A stretch of 64,000 nucleotides of DNA from positions 117,614,001 to 117,678,000 of the forward strand of contig OZ024745.1 of NCBI GenBank assembly GCA_964016885.1, in the 5' to 3' direction. This DNA comes from Eledone cirrhosa. Its lineage: Eukaryota. How positions within the stretch are numbered: position 1 is the stretch's first letter; each line of letters starts with the position of its first letter. Below the pieces are notes generated by a model. That model saw nothing but the letters and a program-made list of their open reading frames with translations. It did no database searches and had not been told where the DNA came from. Positions 1 through 57,524 of the stretch are shown here, in pieces. The translations under genes were made by a program, and so were the position numbers.

Positions 1-3000
1 TAACTTGGCTGACAGTCTACAGTCTATATAACTTGGCTGACAGTCTACAATCTATATAACTTGGCTGACAATCTACAGTCTATATAACTTGGCTGACAGT
101 CTACAATCTATATAACTTGGCTGACAGTCTACAATATATATAACTTGGCTGACAATCTACAATCTATATAACTTGGCTGACAATCTACAATCTATATAAC
201 TTGGCTGACAATCTACAATCTATATAACTTGGCTGACAATCTACAGTCTATATAACTTGGCTGACAATCTACAATCTATATAACTTGGCTGACAATCTAC
301 AGTCTATATAACTTGGCTGACAGTCTACAATCTATATAACTTGGCTGACAGTCTACAATCTATATAACTTGGCTGACAATCTACAGTCTATATAACTTGG
401 CTGACAATCTACAATCTATATAACTTGGCTGACAATCTACAATCTATATAACTTGGCTGACAATCTACAATCTATATAACTTGGCTGACAATCTACAATC
501 TATATAACTTGGCTGACAATCTACAGTCTATATTACTTGGCTGACAGTCTACAATCTATATAACTTGGCTGACAGTCTACAATCTATATAACTTGGCTGA
601 CAATCTACAGTCTATATAACTTGGCTGACAATCTACAATCTATATAACTTGGCTGACAGTCTACAATCTATATAACTTGGCTGACAGTCTACAATCTATA
701 TAACTTGGCTGACAGTCTACAATCTATATAACTTGGCTGACAGTCTACAATCTATATAACTTGGCTGACAATCTACAATCTATATAACTTGGCTGACAAT
801 CTACAGTCTATATAACTTGGCTGACAGTCTACAATCTATATAACTTGGCTGACAATCTACAATATATATAACTTGGCTGACAGTCTACAGTCTATATAAC
901 TTGGCTGACAATCTACAATATATATAACTTGGCTGACAGTCTACAGTCTATATAACTTGGCTGACAGTCTACAATCTATATAACTTGGCTGACAGTCTAC
1001 AATATATATAACTTGGCTGACAGTCTACAATCTATATAACTTGGCTGACAGTCTACAATATATATAACTTGGCTGACAGTCTACAATCTATATAACTTGG
1101 CTGACAATCTACAATCTATATAACTTGGCTGACAGTCTACAATATATATAACTTGGCTGACAATCTACAATATATATAACTTGGCTGACAATCTACAATA
1201 TATATAACTTGGCTGACAGTCTACAATCTATATAACTTGGCTGACAGTCTACAATATATATAACTTGGCTGACAATCTACAATCTATATAACTTGGCTGA
1301 CAATCTACAATATATATAACTTGGCTGACAGTCTACAATCTATATAACTTGGCTGACAATCTACAATATATATAACTTGGCTGACAGTCTACAATGTATA
1401 TAACTTGGCTGACAATCTACAATATATATAACTTGGCTGACAGTCTACAATCTATATAACTTGGCTGACAGTCTACAATATATATAACTTGGCTGACAAT
1501 CTACAATCTATATAACTTGGCTGACAATCTACAATATATATAACTTGGCTGACAATCTACAATCTATATAACTTGGCTGACAATCTACAATATATATAAC
1601 TTGGCTGACAATCTACAATCTATATAACTTGGCTGACAATCTACAATCTATATAACTTGGCTGACAGTCTACAATCTTTATAACTTGGCTGACAATCTAC
1701 AGTCTATATAACTTGGCTGACAATCTACAATATATATAACTTGGCTGACAGTCTACAATCTATATAACTTGGCTGACAGTCTACAATATATATAACTTGG
1801 CTGACAATCTACAATCTATATAACTTGGCTGACAATCTACAATCTATATAACTTGGCTGACAATCTACAATCTATATAACTTGGCTGACAATCTACAATA
1901 TATATAACTTGGCTGACAGTCTACAATCTATATAACTTGGCTGACAATCTACAATATATATAACTTGGCTGACAGTCTACAATGTATATAACTTGGCTGA
2001 CAATCTACAATATATATAACTTGGCTGACAGTCTACAATCTATATAACTTGGCTGACAGTCTACAGTCTATATAACTTGGCTGACAGTCTACAATCTATA
2101 TAACTTGGCTGACAATCTACAATCTATATAACTTGGCTGACAGTCTACAATCTATATAACTTGGCTGACAGTCTACAATATATATAACTTGGCTGACAAT
2201 CTACAATCTATATAACTTGGCTGACAGTCTACAATATATATAACTTGGCTGACAATCTACAATCTATATAACTTGGCTGACAGTCTACAATCTATATAAC
2301 TTGGCTGACAGTCTACAATATATATAACTTGGCTGACAGTCTACAATCTATATAACTTGGCTGACAGTCTACAATATATATAACTTGGCTGACAGTCTAC
2401 AATCTATATAACTTGGCTGACAATCTACAATCTATATAACTTGGCTGACAATCTACAGTCTATATAACTTGGCTGACAGTCTACAGTCTATATAACTTGG
2501 CTGACAGTCTACAATCTATATGACTTGGCTGACAGTCTACAATCTATATAACTTGGCTGACAGTCTACAATCTATATGACTTGGCTGACAGTCTACAATC
2601 TATATAACTTGGCTGACAATCTACAATCTATATAACTTGGCTGACAGTCTACAATATATATAACTTGGCTGACAGTCTACAATCTATATAACTTGGCTGA
2701 CAGTCTACAATCTATATAACTTGGCTGACAGTCTACAATCTATATAACTTGGCTGACAGTCTACAATCTATATAACTTGGCTGACAATCTACAATCATTA
2801 TAACTTGGCTGACAATCTACAATCTATATAACTTGGCTGACAATCTACAATCTATATAACTTGGCTGACAGTCTACAGTCTATATAACTTGGCTGACAAT
2901 CTACAATATATATAACTTGGCTGACAATCTACAATCTATATAACTTGGCTGACAGTCTACAATCTATATAACTTGGCTGACAGTCTACAATCTATATAAC

Positions 3001-6000
3001 TTGGCTGACAGTCTACAATCTATATAACTTGGCTGACAATCTACAATATATATAACTTGGCTGACAATCTACAATCTATATAACTTGGCTGACAGTCTAC
3101 AATCTATATAACTTGGCTGACAGTCTACAATCTATATAACTTGGCTGACAGTCTACAATCTATATAACTTGGCTGACAATCTACAATCTATATAACTTGG
3201 CTGACAATCTACAATCTATATAACTTGGCTGACAGTCTACAATCTATATAACTTGGCTGACAGTCTACAATCTATATAACTTGGCTGACAGTCTACAATC
3301 TATATAACTTGGCTGACAATCTACAGTCTATATAACTTGGCTGACAGTCTACAATCTATATAACTTGGCTGACAATCTACAATCTATATAACTTGGCTGA
3401 CAGTCTACAATCTATATAACTTGGCTGACAGTCTACAATCTATATAACTTGGCTGACAGTCTACAATCAATATAACTTGGCTGACAATCTACAATCTATA
3501 TAACTTGGCTGACAGTCTACAATCTATATAACTTGGCTGACAGTCTACAATCTATATAACTTGGCTGACAGTCTACAATCTATATAACTTGGCTGACAAT
3601 CTACAGTCTATATAACTTGGCTGACAGTCTACAATCTATATAACTTGGCTGACAATCTACAATCTATATAACTTGGCTGACAGTCTACAATCTATATAAC
3701 TTGGCTGACAGTCTACAATCTATATAACTTGGCTGACAGTCTACAATATATATAACTTGGCTGACAGTCTACAATCTATATAACTTGGCTGACAGTCTAC
3801 AATCTATATAACTTGGCTGACAGTCTACAATCTATATAACTTGGCTGACAGTCTACAATCTATATAACTTGGCTGACAGTCTACAATCTATATAACTTGG
3901 CTGACAGTCTACAATCTATATAACTTGGCTGACAATCTACAGTCTATATAACTTGGCTGACAGTCTACAATCTATATAACTTGGCTGACAGTCTACAATC
4001 TATATAACTTGGCTGACAATCTACAGTCTATATAACTTGGCTGACAGTCTACAATCTATATAACTTGGCTGACAGTCTACAATCTATATAACTTGGCTGA
4101 CAGTCTACAATCTATATAACTTGGCTGACAGTCTGCAATCTATATAACTTGGCTGACAATCTACAGTCTATATAACTTGGCTGACAGTCTACAATCTATA
4201 TAACTTGGCTGACAGTCTACAATCTATATAACTTGGCTGACAGTCTACAATCTATATAACTTGGCTGACAGTCTACAATCTATATAACTTGGCTGACAAT
4301 CTACAGTCTATATAACTTGGCTGACAGTCTACAATCTATATAACTTGGCTGACAATCTACAATCTATATAACTTGGCTGACAGTCTACAATCTATATAAC
4401 TTGGCTGACAGTCTACAATCTATATAACTTGGCTGACAGTCTACAATATATATAACTTGGCTGACAATCTACAGTCTATATAACTTGGCTGACAGTCTAC
4501 AATCTATATAACTTGGCTGACAATCTACAATCTATATAACTTGGCTGACAGTCTACAATCTATATAACTTGGCTGACAGTCTACAATCTATATAACTTGG
4601 CTGACAGTCTACAATCTATATAACTTGGCTGACAGTCTACAATCTATATAACTTGGCTGACAGTCTACAATCTATATAACTTGGCTGACAATCTACAATC
4701 TATATAACTTGGCTGACAGTCTACAATCTATATAACTTGGCTGACAATCTACAATCTATATAACTTGGCTGACAGTCTACAATCTATATAACTTGGCTGA
4801 CAATCTACAGTCTATATAACTTGGCTGACAGTCTACAATCTATATAACTTGGCTGACAATCTACAATCTATATAACTTGGCTGACAGTCTACAATCTATA
4901 TAACTTGGCTGACAGTCTACAATCTATATAACTTGGCTGACAGTCTACAATATATATAACTTGGCTGACAGTCTACAATCTATATAACTTGGCTGACAGT
5001 CTACAATCTATATAACTTGGCTGACAGTCTACAGTCTATATAACTTGGCTGACAGTCTACAATCTATATAACTTGGCTGACAGTCTACAATATATATAAC
5101 TTGGCTGACAATCTACAGTCTATATAACTTGGCTGACAATCTACAATCTATATAACTTGGCTGACAATCTACAGTCTATATAACTTGGCTGACAGTCTAC
5201 AATCTATATAACTTGGCTGACAGTCTACAGTCTATATAACTTGGCTGACAGTCTACAATCTATATAACTTGGCTGACAATCTACAGTCTATATAACTTGG
5301 CTGACAGTCTACAATATATATAACTTGGCTGACAGTCTACAATATATATAACTTGGCTGACAGTCTACAATATATATAACTTGGCTGACAATCTACAGTC
5401 TATATAACTTGGCTGACAATCTACAATCTATATAACTTGGCTGACAGTCTACAATATATATAACTTGGCTGACAATCTACAATCTATATAACTTGGCTGA
5501 CAGTCTACAATCTATATAACTTGGCTGACAATCTACAATCTATATAACTTGGCTGACAATCTACAATCTATATAACTTGGCTGACAATCTACAATCATTA
5601 TAACTTGGCTGACAATCTACAATCTATATAACTTGGCTGACAGTCTACAGTCTATATAACTTGGCTGACAATCTACAGTCTATATAACTTGGCTGACAAT
5701 CTACAATCATTATAACTTGGCTGACAGTCTACAATCTATATAACTTGGCTGACAGTCTACAATCTATATAACTTGGCTGACAATCTACAATCTATATAAC
5801 TTGGCTGACAGTCTACAATCTTTATAACTTGGCTGACAATCTACAATCATTATAACTTGGCTGACAGTCTACAATCTATATAACTTGGCTGACAGTCTAC
5901 AATCTATATAACTTGGCTGACAATCTACAATCTATATAACTTGGCTGACAGTCTACAATCTATATAACTTGGCTGACAGTCTACAATCTATATAACTTGG

Positions 6001-7868
6001 CTGACAGTCTACAATCTATATAACTTGGCTGACAGTCTACAATATATATAACTTGGCTGACAATCTACAATATATATAACTTGGCTGACAGTCTACAATC
6101 TATATAACTTGGCTGACAGTCTACAATCTATATAACTTGGCTGACAGTCTACAATCTATATAACTTGGCTGACAGTCTACAATCTATATAACTTGGCTGA
6201 CAGTCTACAATCTATATAACTTGGCTGACAGTCTACAATCTATATAACTTGGCTGACAATCTACAATCTATATAACTTGGCTGACAATCTACAATCTATA
6301 TAACTTGGCTGACAGTCTACAATATATATAACTTGGCTGACAATCTACAATCTATATAACTTGGCTGACAGTCTACAATATATATAACTTGGCTGACAGT
6401 CTACAATATATATAACTTGGCTGACAATCTACAATATATATAACTTGGCTGACAATCTACAATCTATATAACTTGGCTGACAGTCTACAATATATATAAC
6501 TTGGCTGACAGTCTACAATCTATATAACTTGGCTGACAGTCTACAATCTATATAACTTGGCTGACAGTCTACAATCTATATAACTTGGCTGACAGTCTAC
6601 AATCTATATAACTTGGCTGACAGTCTACAATCTATATAACTTGGCTGACAATCTACAATCTATATAACTTGGCTGACAATCTACAATCTATATAACTTGG
6701 CTGACAGTCTACAATATATATAACTTGGCTGACAATCTACAATCTATATAACTTGGCTGACAGTCTACAATATATATAACTTGGCTGACAGTCTACAATC
6801 TATATAACTTGGCTGACAGTCTACAATCTATATAACTTGGCTGACAGTCTACAATATATATAACTTGGCTGACAATCTACAATATATATAACTTGGCTGA
6901 CAATCTACAATCTATATAACTTGGCTGACAATCTACAATCTATATAACTTGGCTGACAGTCTACAATATATATAACTTGGCTGACAATCTACAATATATA
7001 TAACTTGGCTGACAATCTACAATCTATATAACTTGGCTGACAGTCTACAATATATATAACTTGGCTGACAATCTACAATCTATATAACTTGGCTGACAGT
7101 CTACAATATATATAACTTGGCTGACAATCTACAATCTATATAACTTGGCTGACAGTCTACAATCTATATAACTTGGCTGACAGTCTACAATCTATATAAC
7201 TTGGCTGACAGTCTACAATCTATATAACTTGGCTGACAGTCTACAATATATATAACTTGGCTGACAGTCTACAATATATATAACTTGGCTGACAGTCTAC
7301 AATCTATATAACTTGGCTGACAGTCTACAATATATATAACTTGGCTGACAATCTACAATCTATATAACTTGGCTGACAGTCTACAATCTATATAACTTGG
7401 CTGACAGTCTACAATCTATATAACTTGGCTGACAGTCTACAATCTATATAACTTGGCTGACAATCTACAATATATATAACTTGGCTGACAGTCTACAATC
7501 TATATAACTTGGCTGACAGTCTACAGTCTATATAACTTGGCTGACAGTCTACAATCTATATAACTTGGCTGACAATCTACAATCTATATAACTTGGCTGA
7601 CAATCTACAATCTATATAACTTGGCTGACAGTCTACAATCTATATAACTTGGCTGACAATCTACAATCTATATAACTTGGCTGACAGTCTACAGTCTATA
7701 TAACTTGGCTGACAGTCTACAATCTATATAACTTGGCTGACAGTCTACAATCTATATAACTTGGCTGACAGTCTACAATCTATATAACTTGGCTGACAGT
7801 CTACAATCTATATAACTTGGCTGACAATCTACAATCTATATAACTTGGCTGACAGCCTGCAATCTTTA
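1..7868. repeat. 28-bp tandem satellite, ~280 copies, truncated by window start; consensus TAACTTGGCTGACA(G/A)TCTACA(A/G)T(C/A)TATA
   Basis: Unit restarts every 28 nt and keeps phase over the whole array (TAACTTGGCT at 1, 421, 841 ... 7561); degenerate last unit at 7841-7868. Confidence 0.99.
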
Positions 7869-8614
7869 GTGAGATAGAAATTAAAACTAATGTGAAACAA
7901 CAAGAATTTAGAGGAGAGATCATAATTTTCTTGTTTCTTAGATGGGTTATGTCCCTTAGATTGTATTCAATGAGAAAAGTGTAACATACTAGTGAATAAG
8001 TGTTGCTTATGAAATGCACCACCTGATATTAAAGATATGTTAAATTGTGTATTGGGACAGAGTAGTGAAAACATTAGATTAAACGCCTCTCTACTCTAAG
8101 TTCAAATTTCACCCAAGTCAACTTTGCTTTTAAGGTTGATAGATAATGTACCATTTCAGGGGGATGTGGATTGACAAAATCAGATTCGAATGGGAGGCTT
8201 TGAAATATCTGTTTCAGCTCTCTACATTTTGAGTTCAAATCCCACCTGTTATGATCAGTAGATAACATACACCTTCCCTAGCAAGCTGGCTTCTTGTGTG
8301 AAGGAATTAGCCTTAAAAAGTATTGAAATCTGCTCTTAATGTTCCATACTCTGCTGTGAATGGAAAAAACGATTTGAAGAAATAATTGTATAAGAAGGGT
8401 TCTAGTGTAATGTGCTGTATATAAGATTGAGAATTTTGTATAAGCTTATTGCATGTAATGAGTTTTTGTTATAAGGTTGGTATAGAGGTGGTATTTTTGT
8501 AATAGTATGTGTCATGCATTTGTCCATGTAAGGTGGTGCATTTGGGAGCGTTTACTATCATAAGTTGTGAAGTTTGTGGAGGCCTGTGAAATGAGGCAAG
8601 CATGCTCTGCTGAA

Positions 8615-37402: not shown

Positions 37403-37699
37403 TTATAATTCTTCTTGGTGATATTATTAGTTTTCTGCTAAATATATATATATATTAGTTTTGCGAGGTTTTTGATATGATATGAAACCGTGTGTCGAAA
37501 CAAATATTGTTATACTTGGGGAGGGTCATATTGTTGTAATAATATTGCCAGAATTAATAACAGAACACACTCATTGTTTGGTTGGTTTTCGTTTCTGTAT
37601 CTTTTATATCAGTTAATTTAATTTATTCGGTCCTCAATGTTACCATTGACTGACCAACGGTCAAAAATACAGATACAATATAGACACAAACACATATAT

Positions 37700-37752
37700 A
37701 TAGTCTAACAAAGTTCTTTCGTTGCACATCTGCAACATCGTCAGTGGTGCTA
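37700..37752 (-). ncRNA. Hammerhead-ribozyme-like motif (type I, minimal)
   Basis: Minus strand ACCA-CUGACGA-U-GUUGCA-gaug-UGCAAC-GAAA-GAACUU-UG. Confidence 0.55.
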
Positions 37753-38240
37753 TTATGTTTCCTCCTGTTGTATTGTATGCCTACGCCATCTTTATTTATT
37801 TATATTGTTTTCTCTGCGCATGCGTTTGCGTGTGTGTTCGTGTTTGGGTGACTGTGTATTGGTTTTTGTATTCTATTTTAGTTTACTAGTGTGTGTTTAT
37901 ATGTGTTTGTTGTTATTGTGCTTGTGTATGTATTTATTTATTTATTTATACTTCTCTTGGGTCAGTATTGTTTGTTTGGGTGTTGTTGCATATATATATA
38001 TTTGTTTTGTGATGTTTTTAATATGAAATCGTGTGTCGAAACAAATATTGTTATACTTGGGGAGGGTCATATTGTTGTAATAATATTGCCAGAAATAATA
38101 ACAGAACACACTCACTGTTTGGTTGGTTTTCGTTTCTGTATCTTCTATATCTCCACAGTTAATTCACTCAGTCCTCAATGTTTACCATTGACTGACCAAC
38201 GGTCAAAAATACAGATATAAACACATATATAACATATATA

Positions 38241-38288
38241 TAGTCTCACAAAGTTCTTTCGTTGCACATCTGCAACATCATCAGTGGT
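38241..38288 (-). ncRNA. Hammerhead-ribozyme-like motif (type I, minimal)
   Basis: Minus strand ACCA-CUGAUGA-U-GUUGCA-gaug-UGCAAC-GAAA-GAACUU-UG. Confidence 0.55.
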
Positions 38289-39129
38289 ATATATATATAT
38301 ATATATATAGCAGGGGTTCCCAACTTTTTTTCTATAGTAAATATTCAGAAGCATACCACAAAGTTTGTTACTGGTTCGTAAACTGACATTTTATGATGTA
38401 GCAAAAAAAAACACAACTAAAGGGAGGTAACAAATAACTGACTTATGCGGTGGTTGCTGATTACTTTTCAAAAGATCACACACACAATTCCTCCCTTTTT
38501 TTTTCCTTTCTTTCCCTACCCTTTTCTCTTTTCATCCGCATGTCCAAACCTCAACCTCGCACACGGCCCACCTATATCTTCGCTCACACCGTTAGCTGCC
38601 CGATGTACTGGTCGGATTATTACTGGTGGTTGTAAATAAATAGAGATGCCACCATTTTAGGTGGTGGTGGCATGCACCTAAGAGACCTGCGTGTTGGGAC
38701 GACTTTGTGACAACAGGTCAACCTTCGACCTCTCGTTCTCCACCAACTTTGGCCTACACAAGGGGAGTTAACTTCCATCTCCTATCGCCCCCCACCGTTG
38801 GATTCGAACAGAACTAATCCTGATCACTTCACCACTCCTACAATAGTTAGCCCACTCTCAGCACTACTCCAAATCCCAAAGTTAGAGATAATGTTTACCC
38901 TGCCTCTATTGGTACCCCCCCCCCCCCCCACACACACACACTACCTCACCCGAATTCCAATGTTGGCCCTCTAACATCGGTTGCTACCAGTTCACCACAT
39001 GTTTATGTTCTCTGTATCCACACAAGTCAGTACCTGAAGACAATTAAATGTCACCTGTATTGCTAAAGCTACCACTTTAACTCCGACATACTTTATATGG
39101 AAGTCCTATGCTTCGACAACCAGCTTTCT

Positions 39130-40490
39130 ACTGAAGACTTTGCTGCAGCCCTCCATCATTCATCAACTGAATCCCAAAGGGGGCTCCGAGTAGTTTTGCA
39201 CATGCTCTCTCTAAACTGTTGAAAAACGTTTGTTTATCCAACAATACATCTGATTGGCAGAAACTGATTTTGTTCCCTCTCATCTCTCCACGTGCACAAT
39301 GTGAATTCCGGTTCCCTCACATCTCTCAAGCAACAGTTTCACCTCAGCTTGGAATCGGGCTGTGTCTACCAACAGGCCACCGACAAACTTACAAAATGCT
39401 GTTAATGCCAAATTTAGCGAATTTGACATTAAAGGAGCTGCCGTCTCCTCTCTTGCACAGTGTAACTCAGATTCTCTTGAGTGACTGAAAGAGAAGCACC
39501 CATCAGTCCCTCTGGATGACCAATTATACTGTCCTGAACCACCAGAATACTCAACACCGGTCTACATCACTGATAACATCAGGAAGGTGATTGCATCCTA
39601 TCCCATTGGTTCTCGTGTGGGGATTGACGGTCTACGACCTCAGCACCTCAAGAATAGTAACTCCTTATCAGCCAGTGATGCCAGACTTGAGCTCTTGGAA
39701 AGTCTGAGTCTGACTCAGTTTGTGAATCAATTCTCTTCAGAGAACGTTCTCTCCTATATCCGTCGATTATTCTTTGGTGCAAAACTATTCGGACTCACAA
39801 AGCTGAATGGAGACCTATTGCGGTTGGCTGCACCCTTCGTCGTCTTACTGCAAAGGTATGTTTGTTATTGGTCTCTGATTCACTGTCGGTGGATTTTCTC
39901 CCCATCTAGTTAGCGGTGGGTACCAGCGATTTGCCCAAGCAATTTGGAGGCCTTGGCCTACGTAAATGTTCGTCCCTCTCGCTCCTTTGTTTCAATTCCT
40001 CCACCCTAGTGGGTAACATCCTCTTCTTTCCAGCATGGACTAGTTCCAACAGGGAGATGGATGAAGTTCTTCTACGATGGAGAGAGCTAGGTTTGTCTGT
40101 TCCTGACACAATAGAGGACCAACAGGCAGAGTTTGAGACAACATATATTCGAAGGCCACCTTTAACTCTCTCTTCTACTAGTCAGATCAGTCCTCAAGGT
40201 GCCACCTACTGTCTGCTAGGTGACTGGGTTGATGCCCTACACATGGTCAACATCAGTGGTCTACTCAGTTTGGACGAGCTTTGAGTCTCCATTGCCCTCA
40301 GAGTGGGAGCCGATGTCTGTATGGGACTGAAATTTCAGTGTGGTAGGCTCATCGACTCCAGACACTCACGGTCTATCTTGCTGTCTAAATGCCAGTTGCT
40401 TCGCACGTCACACTGAGCTAAACCCCATCAAGAGGGCTTTGGCTCGGGCCAATATCCCCTCAATTTTGAAACCGTTTGGGTTTAAAGAAG
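39130..40490 (+). mobile_element. Heavily decayed CRE-clade retrotransposon with RT core deleted
   Basis: GIDGLRPQHLK, FFGAKLFGLTK.NG, LPKQFGGLGLR, GDWVDAL, then SIALRVG and RHTELN..IKRALARA. Confidence 0.75.
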
Positions 40491-40695
40491 GCGACAACCA
40501 TTTCTTGATTTGTAACTAAACAATGCTCATATTTCCTCCAGATTTATTCAGACTTCTTAGGCTCTTTGCGAAACGAATTTTAGAAATATTTTGTAATAGT
40601 TTTAAATTGTTACGGCTTTTAATACATTAACAATTTACTCAGGGTAATGTTTTTTTATGCGCGGAAGACGTAAATAGAAGGAAAAAGGAAAGAAA

Positions 40696-47269: not shown

Positions 47270-49440
47270 GTAGAAATTGTGGCCTTGGTTGAGAGGAGAC
47301 AAGTGGATGTATGTTGTGTTGAAGAGGTGAGATGGATGGGTGCCTCAGCAATACTATTCACCAGAAAACAATATAGATACAAGCTATTCTGGATAGGAAA
47401 TGATAATTGGGTATGTGGGGTAAGCAGCTGAATTGTAGATACATAAGGTATTGTAGTAGGAGTAAGTGACAGAATTATCAAGCTCAGAATAATCATAGGC
47501 AATAGGATGACAACAATTATCTCTACCTATGCACGAAAAGCAGGACTGAGTAAAGAACATAAGGACCGTTTCTATGTGGAACTCTTACAGACAACTTCAG
47601 TTGCAGATGATAGAGGCCTCATCATCTTGGCAGGCGACTTCGATGGACATGTTGTGCAGCACCTGGCTACACTGGGGTACATGGTGGCTATGGATACGGC
47701 TCAAGAAATGAAGAGAGAGAGAGTGAGGCTCCTGGAATTCTGTGATGCTAATGAACTAACCATTTGCAACATTAATTTCAGGAAACTGGCCAGCCATCTG
47801 ATCACCTACCAATCTGGCAAACACACAAACCAGATTGACTTCTTGTTAGAAAACAGGATTGTAATGACCTACATTCTGAAGGCTCTTGAATACATTCTCC
47901 ATATGTTGTTTAGCTCAGTTCAGCCAGTCGCTACCAGCGCAGGGAGATGCATTTTAACTTCCGCCCCAAGGGAAAAATTTTCGAATTAAATGTTCCATAA
48001 AAACAAAAAATTAGAAGTGGTATTTTTAAAAAGAGAACACACAAGCTTTCTTGTATTGTATCAGCACCATGTAAAAACCTTTTTGTTGATAACAGCACAA
48101 CACAGTTTTCTGTCACGTTTAAATAGCCAAACAGCTAGTCATTTGACACAACGGCTCAACACGGCCCTTAGCGCCTCATTTTTCTTCTTGCATGAATTCT
48201 TTTGTTCAATTTTGTCATTGATGTGCTCTCTTTCAGCGTTTTTCCTGCTAATTCAATCTTATTTATTGCCTTCTAGGCTAAATAGGGGGTATTGTAGTGA
48301 CCTACATTCTGAGGGCTCTTGAATACATTCTCCATACGTTGTTTGGCTCAGTTCAGCCAATCACTACCAGCGTATGGAGATGCATTTCGACTTCCGCCCT
48401 AAGGGAAAAATTCCCGCTTCTTTCAAAAAACTATCTCTCTTTGCATCTCGGCACCGGAAGGTAAACATCTCTTGACTTTGCTCCTCAAATATTTCAAAAT
48501 GTAACTACTGGAATTCTTCGCACAGTGGCTTCTAACTTCAGCCATCGGTCTGCGTATTCTTTTACAGCATCTTAATTTGTTTTGTTTCCTTTCTTATGAC
48601 ATGTCCTCACTGCTAACTCAACTTCTCATCTTTGTAAATAAATTATATATATAAAAACATTGTAATGCTCTATGATGATATTTGCCACAAAATTCCCTTG
48701 GACTGTTTCGGTTACTCTCTGTGATACAATACGCAAACAAATATTAACATTCATAACACAACCTATGTCCATATATCTCTCTCCTATTAACTCTCAACTA
48801 AATAACTTCTTCTAAAGGATAAACAAATGGTTATAAATGTTAAGTCCTTCCCTAAGGAGGAAAGTATGAAAGCTCAAGGTCGTTTCAGTTAAGTATAGGT
48901 TTAGAAAGACTCTACAGGATGCATATGATGAGAAGGAAGATGAGTTAGATACATATAGGAGGACATTTGGAAGTTCTTACGTTATAACCTATTATAGACT
49001 ACTGATGAGATTTGTGGCTTGAGCAAAGTACTGGCTAGTCAGATGGTGACCTGGTGATGAAACAACACAGTGGATAAAGCCATTAAGGATAAGAGACAGG
49101 TGTAGAAAGAATGAAAAAATGGGGGTAATAGAAACCAGTACAAGGTAGCCAAGAGAGGAGCTGGATGTCATGTATATATAGTACACCAAGAGGCTGAAAG
49201 AAAGAGGCTTGCCAATGTCTTATGGCATGAAGATAAAAGATGAAAAATGTTCCACATTGCAAGGCAGTGTGTAAGTGTGAATCAAAATATTATTGAGGAA
49301 AAGTGTGATTGAAATGATGCTGGTACATTTAGAATCACTCATAAGAACGAGGCCTGGAATTGCCACTATGAAAGGTTGATGAATGTGGAGAATGAGGGTG
49401 AGGAAGGGAGACAAACCCCAACAGAAGGACCAGCAATCTT
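47270..49440 (+). mobile_element. Decayed RTE LINE endonuclease/linker region, interrupted by an LTR insertion at 47860-48815
   Basis: VDVCCVEEVRW, ISTYA, ILAGDFDGHV, LLEFCDANEL, ITYQSG..QIDF; resumes after 48820. Confidence 0.82.
47860..48815 (+). mobile_element. LTR-derived insertion with 5-bp TSD AGGAT, containing a second LTR start at 48293
   Basis: TGTAATGACCTACATTC at 47860 and TGTAGTGACCTACATTC at 48293; AGGAT at 47855-47859 and 48816-48820. Confidence 0.7.
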
Positions 49441-50673: not shown

Positions 50674-50745
50674 CATTTATCTTCCAGAAATTCCCATCGT
50701 TCTGTCAAGTTCAAAGCATCATGACTGCCATCAGTACAATAAAAG
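50674..50745 (+). CDS. Exon 2 of the SDR gene (AFIFQKFPSFCQVQSIMTAISTIK; alternative start ATG at 50721)
   Basis: Acceptor TTTTTATTTCAG, donor AAG|GTAGGT, 72 nt phase 1-1, in frame with the SDR exon. Confidence 0.75.
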
Positions 50746-51114: not shown

Positions 51115-51290
51115 AATTGTTTCTACTTTTGGCACAAAGCCAGCAATTAACCAGTACATTACTGGTACTTTATTTTATCGACCTGGTATGGATGAAAGGC
51201 AAAGTTAACCTCGGCGGGATTTGAAATCAGATCATAAAGGGACATAACTATGCTGGAAAGCATGTCCGAGCCTCTACCGATACTGCCAAT
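51115..51290 (-). mobile_element. tRNA-derived SINE (short form), TSD AATAAATAAT
   Basis: Reverse complement of the short SINE family. Confidence 0.9.
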
Positions 51291-51828
51291 GAATAAATAA
51301 TGAATGAATATTACATAATTTATCTACTAAATTTCGTAAACAACAATAATTTCGTAAAAATAAATAATTTAAAATTGACTTCTTTTCAAAGATGCACTTC
51401 CGGTATATCGTTGCCCCCACCATCACTTCAACTACCATATATATAGAAAGAGAGAGTGTGTGATATCAACACTTCCGGTGGCGGTCACTTAAATAAACAT
51501 ACTAATTTTCTCCTAATGCAGTTTATATATAATATCGTCTTTTTTTAATGTATCATGGATTACGTTACTGATTACATAAGAGATGTAACAGTCTTCATTC
51601 AATTTCTGTTTATATTGTCAATTACGATTTTAGTTGATGTATCATATCTACATGTATATATACTTGCATATAATATCAATATACACACTACACACGATAG
51701 CAGAAAACCACCTGAAGGGTGGTGTTCTGCTAGTTTATATAAATGTATATCATTTGATAATTTAGCTGGCAATCAATGTTTATCCTTTATTGATCAACAG
51801 TTAAAAATATAAATATAGATATAGTTTT

Positions 51829-51871
51829 TCAAAGTTCTTTCATCACACATATCTGTGACATCCTCAGTGAT
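51829..51871 (-). ncRNA. Hammerhead-ribozyme-like motif in a diverged copy of the 37.5-38.3 kb repeat
   Basis: Minus strand AUCA-CUGAGGA-U-GUCACA-gauaug-UGUGAU-GAAA-GAACUU-UGA; compensatory stem-II changes relative to the other two copies. Confidence 0.55.
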
Positions 51872-52039
51872 TATCATGCGTCCATGTTTCCTCCTGTTTT
51901 GTTCCTGTTGCCACTACTTGAATTGTTGTTGTCGTCATTGATGATGATGATTATAGTATATTACGCTATTACATGTTCCAGCTGAGGTCTGTTGATATTA
52001 TTAAAAATAATTTTATAATTACAATGCTTAAAGATTATA

Positions 52040-52227: not shown

Positions 52228-52339
52228 TCTTAAAGATTATAATGAAGGAGAAATGGAATTCTGTAACATTTATTTCGTTTCCAAAACATTATCACCATTA
52301 AAGAATTGATTTTATAAGAGAATCCAAAATGATTTGTGA

Positions 52340-52928
52340 ATTTTCTCACTCAGATTCTAACATCTTTCCCTACAGGATTCACATATTTTCTCACTCAGAT
52401 TCTCACTTCTTTCCCTACAGGATTCACATATTTTCTCACTCAGATTCTCACTTCTTTCCCTACAGGATTCCCATATTTTCTCACTCAGATTCTAACATCT
52501 TTCCCTACAGGATTCCCATATTTTCTCACTCAGATTCTCACTTCTTTCCCTACAGGATTCACATATTTTCTCACTCAGATTCTAACATCTTTCCCTACAG
52601 GATTCACATATTTTCTCACTCAGATTCTCACTTCTTTCCCTACAGGATTCCCATATTTTCTCACTCAGATTCTCACTTCTTTCCCTACAGGATTCCCATA
52701 TTTTCTCACTCAGATTCTCACTTCTTTCCCTACAGGATTCCCATATTTTCTCACTCAGATTCTCACTTCTTTCCCTACAGGATTCACATATTTTCTCACT
52801 CAGATTCTAACATCTTTCCCTACAGGATTCCCATATTTTCTCACTCAGATTCTCACTTCTTTCCCTACAGGATTCACATATTTTCTCACTCAGATTCTAA
52901 CTCCTCTCCCTAGAGGACTCACATATTT
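52340..52928. repeat. 45-bp minisatellite, ~13 copies, intronic
   Basis: TTTTCTCACTCAGATTCT(AACA/CACT)TCTTTCCCTACAGGATTC(A/C)CATA. Confidence 0.97.
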
Positions 52929-55370: not shown

Positions 55371-56161
55371 GTGAACATGTTGAAGAAAGACAAAAGATTG
55401 CTATAGTTACAGGAGGAACTGGTGGCATAGGTTTTGCCACCTCCAGAGCTCTTGCTGCTCAAGGTTATAATTTAATTCTAGGTTACCTTTCTGACAGTGA
55501 AAACGCTAAGAAATGTGCACTGGAATTGAAGACAGATTTCAACATTGAGGTTCAGACAATTGGCAGAGATGTTAATGAAGAAGACACTATAAATTCCTAC
55601 TTTGAATATTTAGATAAATTGAATGGCAAACTTACAGCTATAATTCATACTTGTGGACTTTACTTACCTGATTCCATTTCCAAAAACCCTGATACCCATT
55701 TCACTACATTTGAAACATATGATTATTACCAGGATATTTATCCTAAATGTTTCATACGTTTAGTAGAAACTGGTATAAAATATATGGAAGATGGCAATGG
55801 TTATATAGTTTGTTTATCAAGCCCTGGCTGTAACCTTAACGACCATGTTAGACTAGGTTATATGATGCCAGGTACAGGAAAGTGTGTACTTGAGTATTTG
55901 TCTCGTCATTATGCCAAAATGTTAGCAAAGAGGAGAATAACTTGTAATTGTATAATTCCTGGCTACATACACACAAAACCTTGGAAACAGTTGGAGGAAA
56001 AGGTCGGCCGTGATATTGGTTGCATAAGAACTCCGATGGGTCGATGGGGTAAACCTGAAGAGATAGGAGATTTTATTTCATATTTATGTTCGTCTAAAGC
56101 AAGCTTTATAACCGGTGCTATTATCCCTATTGATGGAGGTTTGAGTCTCGGCTCACAATAA
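55371..56161 (+). CDS. Short-chain dehydrogenase/reductase, enoyl-ACP reductase (FabL/FabI)-like; complete catalytic domain in the terminal exon
   Basis: Acceptor TGCATTTTAG; IAIVTGGTGGIG Rossmann motif, IVCLSS, Y-x6-K (YMMPGTGK), NCIIPGYIHT, TPMGRWGKPEEIG..FITGAIIPIDGG; TAA at 56159-56161; AATAAA twice at ~56177-56189. Confidence 0.93.
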
Positions 56162-57168: not shown

Positions 57169-57524
57169 TATATACATGTATATATATGCATATTGTTATA
57201 CGTTGGGAGGGTCATGTTGCCAATAAAAACACATGCACCTGTTAGTTTTCACTTCAATTTATTATAAATTTCCAGTTGGTTGGTTCAATAACCAGAAGGT
57301 TGTTTATATATTGTCAAAGCTTAATGGTTAAAGCATCTAGCCGGTATCTGGAAAATATGAGGTTCACTTCTTCATAGCGGTTGTTGGCAACTTCTTTTTA
57401 CATCTTTTAAGAGTCTTCACCCTATTTTAAAAACTATCTTTATAGAATTTCTGTGCTTGAGTATTTTCGTTATACTTACATGCACAAACACACACTAACA
57501 CTAACACATATATATATATATATC

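Follow-up and report, generated by a model that had tools for sequence, protein, structure and literature searches.

The hammerhead-like motif at 51829-51870 on the minus strand of the 64-kb window (the whole stretch of Eledone cirrhosa DNA analysed) very probably belongs to a truncated, likely inactive copy of the pLTR of a Penelope-like element (PLE), with a minimal type-I hammerhead that appears to be under selection in the source elements and decays in the copies after insertion. The window holds three homologous copies, which are samples of two subfamilies of one transposon and for that reason are not independent evidence of function.

Genomic setting of the fragment

Alignment ends in blastn searches against fetched genomic copies cluster at 51757-58 and extend to 51906, delimiting a fragment of ~150 nt (Table 1) in which the final ~110 nt of the pLTR and the whole ORF are missing; tblastn gave no match to an ORF remnant nearby. 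Among other genomic copies, the best 39 share 86-93% identity with it (DNA search, 40 scored of 1504 candidates). The homology between 51760-51900 and 37635-37770 on which the original prediction was built was recovered by nhmmer (37606-37774, E 2.7e-11), as was a second homologue at 38154-38288 (E 2.1e-9). These two relatives, copies 1 and 2, lie 540 nt apart as a partial tandem and share the stem II GUUGCA/UGCAAC. Copy 1 comprises a 3′ UTR remnant, a hammerhead at 37747-37708 and the first ORF codons, the last identified by tblastn to the ORF N-terminus. Stem-II states are written throughout as the 5′ arm/3′ arm dinucleotides at the two variable pairs.

Table 1 Features of the window, with positions counted from its first nucleotide
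Feature	Position	Strand	Basis or remark
Type-I minimal hammerhead motif	51829..51870	-	Pattern scan and alignment; cleavage predicted from hammerhead numbering
Truncated PLE pLTR, of the subclass in which a CA/UG stem goes with a 6-nt loop II	51757..51906	-	blastn ends
Copy 1, pLTR of the younger UG/CA subfamily	37504..37988	-	77-82% to the ORF-bearing 4147-bp unit
Copy 2, partial tandem pLTR, hammerhead 38287-38248	38045..38296	-	Starts in a (TA)n run
Different repeat abutting the 3′ end of the fragment	51290..51745	.	~90% to L017 and L022; partial in L081 and L145
Predicted start of the SDR coding sequence, from the ATG to a GT donor	50721..50745	+	In-frame join
Main SDR exon	55371..56161	+	Pfam PF13561 (adh_short_C2) E 1.5e-38, PF00106 E 1.2e-23

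The two SDR exon parts join in frame to a predicted ORF of 271 aa and flank the fragment, which agrees with the antisense, intronic position given originally; its designation as intron 2 presupposes an upstream non-coding exon. No link of the fragment to the SDR gene was found, and the SDR pre-mRNA carries the reverse complement of the motif. The abutting repeat contains an internal hairpin near 51698-51730 with inverted CCGGAAGTG words and adjoins pLTR pieces in L017, L022, L081 and L145. Elsewhere, the window contains an array of 28-bp tandem repeats, at least 276 in number and ~96% alike (1-8000), another tandem repeat with long repetitive open frames (52302-52913), a degenerate stretch beside copies 1 and 2 that by eye resembles a non-LTR retroelement remnant (38880-40500) and a weak tRNA match that is possibly a SINE head (57310-57382; 29.7 bits, gathering 29).

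Structure of the window motif

On the minus strand the motif reads UCA CUGAGGA U GUCACA GAUAUG UGUGAU GAAA GAAC U U UGA and has the CUGANGA core, GAAA and UH in type-I order. Stem I has 3 bp (UCA 51870-68 / UGA 51831-29), as first described, and 2 bp in copies 1 and 2. The core CUGAGGA (51867-61) is followed by a bulged U (51860), the unpaired base between positions 9 and 10.1 that is G or A in a sister family. Stem II has 6 bp (GUCACA 51859-54 / UGUGAU 51847-42) and a 6-nt loop, GAUAUG. GAAA (51841-38) leads into stem III, which consists of an A-U and a G-C pair with a 2-nt loop (GAAC, then U16.1 at 51833) and is followed by U17 (51832). By hammerhead numbering, cleavage is predicted between 51832 and 51831, and the 3′ product would start at 51831, the position named by the original prediction.

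The comparison of the three window copies also stands as first drawn: the double substitutions GUUGCA/UGCAAC to GUCACA/UGUGAU are present on the minus strand and keep stem II paired, loop II measures 4, 4 and 6 nt, core position 7 is C, U and G, and CUGA.GA and GAAA are common to all three. A third stem-II change had gone unmentioned, namely G-C to G·U at the stem base, where the window copy has G·U and not G10.1-C11.1; position 11.1 lies at a CpG site and is U in 18/32 and C in 14/32 of the window copy's class. Loop III of the window copy is a non-palindromic AA, such that in a dimer G15.2-C16.2 pairs and A·A mismatches; in ORF-bearing units loop III is AU with G·U.

A core-plus-stem-II scan of the window returned 4 matches, the three homologous copies and one at 49002 with a 3-bp stem, likely a chance match. 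An Rfam scan found no hammerhead family here, only repeat-driven miRNA matches and weak hits, and minimum-energy folds were no more stable than those of shuffled sequences (z -0.58 to -1.75), an uninformative comparison. Folded as a monomer, the window motif has a stem-II pair probability of ~0.44 and a stem III of ~0, in a program (ViennaRNA) that cannot score a 2-nt loop III. Two-strand folding gave an intermolecular stem-II duplex and no dimeric hammerhead, a form that the program cannot model. The nearest same-strand motif is 13.6 kb off.

The host element

Exact motif cores number >30,000 in the 3.0-Gb genome. In one array (L061/L062), four UG/CA motifs are spaced 4145-4147 bp and followed by an inverted, truncated one. 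Within these 4147-bp tandem units, two of which are 99.95% identical, the UG/CA motif sits 289 nt after the stop of an ORF that encodes RT motifs and ends in an endonuclease-like region, and the ORF starts ~180-210 nt downstream of the hammerhead, placing the motif in the pLTR of an RT-endonuclease element. The RVT_1 match of the ORF (Pfam, E 1.1e-4) is below the cut-off, and Pfam returned nothing for the C-terminus, with GIY-YIG undetected; GIY-YIG is an atlas lead only for this region. The ORF contains a VVY...YIGET motif, which we take to be a GIY-YIG-type endonuclease motif. Tandem units with a pLTR, the inverted truncated copy, (TA)n microsatellite flanks at insertions and a CX3CXXC linker before the endonuclease-like region fit an EN+ Penelope-like element, as judged from sequence. 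The ORF in the L061 and L062 units lies in two overlapping frames (559 + 675 codons), alike in every unit seen, and holds a long Asn-rich stretch.

Remnants of the same ORF also accompany the window copy's own group: among the 30 best loci they lie upstream or downstream of 7/29 motifs, with endonuclease-region remnants (57-73% aa) ≤700 nt upstream of 4/29 and an ORF start downstream of 4/29. The motif has the sequence and position of a minimal PLE hammerhead, for which catalysis is predicted. Several unrelated hammerhead-like cores were seen in the fetched loci, at L062:6710-7313, L051:406-875, L034:193, L031:440 and L040:927-945, some of them in tandem ~470-520 nt apart (retrozyme-like).

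Stem-II states across source lineages

Five paired stem states occur: CA/UG, CG/UG, CG/CG, UG/CG and UG/CA. Exact cores number 20,564 for CA/UG, mostly from the sister family, in which the bulge is a purine and the loop has 5 nt, and at least 10,234 for UG/CA; exact copies number 36 for CG/CG, 86 for UG/CG, 253 for CG/UG plus UG/UG and 189 for the mismatch classes CA/CA, CA/CG and CG/CA. Reversed-pattern controls for these counts were all 0. Wobble and mismatch states were further compared by hand counts over equal genomic spans. Among the matches listed, wobble CG/UG outnumbered mismatch CA/CG by 44 to 5 in the U7, U-bulge, 4-nt-loop background, and wobble UG/CG outnumbered mismatch CG/CA by 47 to 7; the sister-family control gave 39 vs 52 (P = 0.21), again among the matches listed. 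The two arms are reverse complements of each other, and mutation that acts symmetrically on the strands after insertion would therefore yield equal wobble and mismatch counts.

Linked flank alleles differ between stem classes in 9 Fisher tests (P 2e-6 to 0.045) on columns hand-picked after the alignment was viewed, for example 11/15 vs 0/21, 2/19 vs 14/19 and 13/23 vs 1/24. Given the skewed counts and distinct linked flank alleles, each stem state is probably its own source element. In 11/11 hand-picked class representatives all 6/6 stem-II pairs are paired, and 2 pairs are changed on both sides; the covariation score is 0.236 (0/500 shuffles, which for 11 chosen representatives is not a probability). 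Core columns are invariant across classes at 11/11 vs 80/172 flank columns, a comparison with some circularity, most classes having been retrieved by patterns that include the core. No third covarying pair was found; the two-sided variant of pair 10.2/11.2 gave 20 matches vs 12 in the control. Each of the two double changes consists of transitions at CpG-type sites and passes through the CG/CG stem; the chance of four transitions all keeping pairing is ~1/16, and two of the steps are plain CpG decay.

Flank divergence of 4.0-6.4% across classes does not separate their relative ages, and a per-copy flank tree (168/234 motifs kept; the window copy left out, its flank being too short) intermingles CG/CG, CG/UG and UG/CG copies. 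The class tree has the ladder order with bootstrap values of 27-74, and the outgroup agrees with derived classes at 5/8 columns, leaving the direction insecure. A flank-anchored check of the two large families was biased, as it mostly re-found pattern-selected copies. CA/UG is taken as the ancestor by parsimony, being present in the sister family and in the window copy's group.

Three candidate origins of these patterns were rejected. Hairpin inversion cannot swap UG/CA and CA/UG, as both arms stay the same when the interior is inverted; a CG/CG source whose copies each lost CpGs after insertion does not, as the sole cause, fit the 44:5 and 47:7 skews; and a simple recombinant origin of CG/UG does not fit its 3′ flank, which is of CG/CG type (alignment columns 210, 255 and 280). 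Stem-II covariation is a property of the source lineages and suggests selection on pairing in transposing elements, over four steps only. We lean, by a narrow margin over even odds, towards a complete fossil path in which the five states stand one change apart via G·U, each was amplified and mismatches never were.

Decay of dispersed copies

A core-blind sample was drawn with a 27-nt flank word outside the ribozyme (474 occurrences in the genome; 90 loci fetched, 93 copies), and the 37/93 copies that also match upstream of the core were kept for the decay test. In these 37 copies, departures from the majority base are as frequent in the core (23/370, 6.2%) as in the flanks (167/2387, 7.0%; P = 0.66) with polymorphic columns set aside; with those columns left in, the counts are 31/407 and 289/2784. 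Stem II departs from the majority at 25/407 positions, and 17/22 departures in its pairs 2-6 break the pair. As core, stem II and flanks depart alike and most stem-II changes break pairs, the dispersed copies decay neutrally. The core is kept in 17/37 copies, stem II is paired in 24/37 and both hold in 12/37, so that an intact appearance like that of the window copy is nothing unusual among comparable copies. The original prediction had read the window copy as showing the pattern of a structure-constrained catalytic RNA, which is not borne out, since in dispersed copies of its group core positions mutate as freely as the flanks. The alignment and covariation check that it proposed divides accordingly by level: stem-II pairing is maintained in the lineage representatives, and the core is as free as the flanks among the dispersed copies, the outcome that it had named as refuting. 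The window copy is probably under no constraint and most likely silent.

All four bases are found at position N7; at N17, U, C and A occur, and G in 1/37. N7 is unusually mixed in the window copy's own class, CA/UG with a 6-nt loop (L001-L030 and related loci; A12, U10, G5 and C1 of 28), the flanks of which differ by ~5%, and fixed in each of the six other classes; the mixture may reflect either sub-lineages or a site-specific hot-spot.

Proposed mechanism and alternatives

Cleavage by the motif is predicted to require a partner, either a second motif in a dimer or a protein. By analogy with published systems, read-through RNA from tandem active elements would contain two motifs that pair their two-base stems III and cut after N17, releasing unit-length RNA for reverse transcription and (TA)n insertion. 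The core and stem II were apparently kept by selection in source elements, and stem II probably changed at two adjacent pairs, one running from A-U via G·U to G-C and the other from C-G via U·G to U-A, in a direction set by parsimony. Each stem state along this route would have been amplified, and inserted copies, the window copy among them, would then decay neutrally.

That the window copy has been exapted as an active antisense ribozyme regulating the SDR gene is highly improbable. Its core is intact, its stem II fully paired and its position intronic, but a third of comparable copies look equally intact by chance. The motif is antisense to the SDR pre-mRNA, G·U replaces the conserved G10.1-C11.1, and the monomer, whose 2-nt loop III the folding program cannot score, is predicted to form stem II less than half of the time and stem III hardly at all, with the closest potential same-strand partner more than 13 kb distant. 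A more serious, though still unlikely, alternative is that the stem-II covariation is a mutational by-product of CpG decay, A-to-I editing or drift among few sources, with pairing unselected. Four of four steps are transitions at CpG-type dinucleotides, there are four events only, and CpGs in the flanks decay too. Against it, symmetric mutation does not produce the wobble excess seen among the matches listed, the sister family lacks a sense A>G bias at the pair by the same kind of count, and two steps gain a CpG if CA/UG is ancestral.

It is more doubtful again that the fold is selected in source elements as an RT/endonuclease binding or folding signal and not as a cutter. Published data lend this reading some weight: core mutants of the anole PLE insert undiminished in vitro, its cutting needed protein and no RNA-seq reads end at its cut site (PMC11167929), and minimal PLE hammerheads cut poorly in vitro (PMC4209133). 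The invariance of the catalytic bases alongside variation at N7, N17 and the bulge is, by contrast, the pattern expected of catalysis.

Relation to known systems

Low activity in vitro is reported for the minimal type-I hammerheads of metazoan PLEs (Cervera and De la Peña 2014, PMC4209133). On its own, a motif of this kind is unable to close stem III; its cutting is weak and takes a dimer or the protein of the element, and it may free unit-length RNA from read-through transcripts of tandem copies (PMC4209133, PMC6765202, PMC11167929); their function in PLEs has been called unclear (PMC8557442). The E. cirrhosa motifs resemble those of PMC4209133 in their location in the pLTR of an element with RT and C-terminal endonuclease, in a 6-bp stem II with an unpaired base between 9 and 10.1 and very short stems I and III, and in occurring as thousands of dispersed single copies in families with compensatory changes. 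The window copy differs from them in its AA loop III and its 10.1/11.1 G·U; with a stem II of 6 bp, a short stem I and a loop III of 2 nt it is closer to the Drosophila virilis variant than to the loopless motif. A further difference is that intermediate stem states are resolved in the E. cirrhosa family.

The anole Poseidon PAc (PMC11167929) is likewise a PLE with a pLTR hammerhead and has an identical core, but its ORF starts within stem II, unlike that of the E. cirrhosa family. Cutting by the PAc ribozyme has been assayed and is protein-assisted, whereas the E. cirrhosa motif is known from sequence alone. Metazoan non-LTR retrozymes (bioRxiv 10.64898/2026.07.22.740005) share the type-I hammerhead and PLE pLTR derivation, and copies 1 and 2 form a comparable partial tandem; the window copy differs from them as a single truncated 150-nt pLTR of an autonomous family, without tandem non-coding units. 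Compared without a clade tree, the element resembles Neptune/Nematis-type EN+ PLEs, as outlined by Craig et al. 2021 (PMC8557442), in its C-terminal endonuclease, the CX3CXXC before it and microsatellite insertion. Full-text searches, mostly of open-access papers, turned up no description of this family or of a comparable wobble ladder; the supplements of PMC4209133 and PMC8557442 may list cephalopod motifs.

The window copy itself is ordinary transposon debris, and the interest lies in the wobble ladder. The importance of the family is modest: the role of PLE hammerheads is unsettled, and the core mutants reported in PMC11167929 were harmless to in vitro insertion. With >30,000 copies and resolvable source lineages, the family separates selection before insertion from decay after insertion. 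If the fossil path is real, it would be in vivo evidence that the Penelope hammerhead fold is needed for transposition, a point that the in vitro work in PMC11167929 left open, and the stem states would be natural variants for a direct test.
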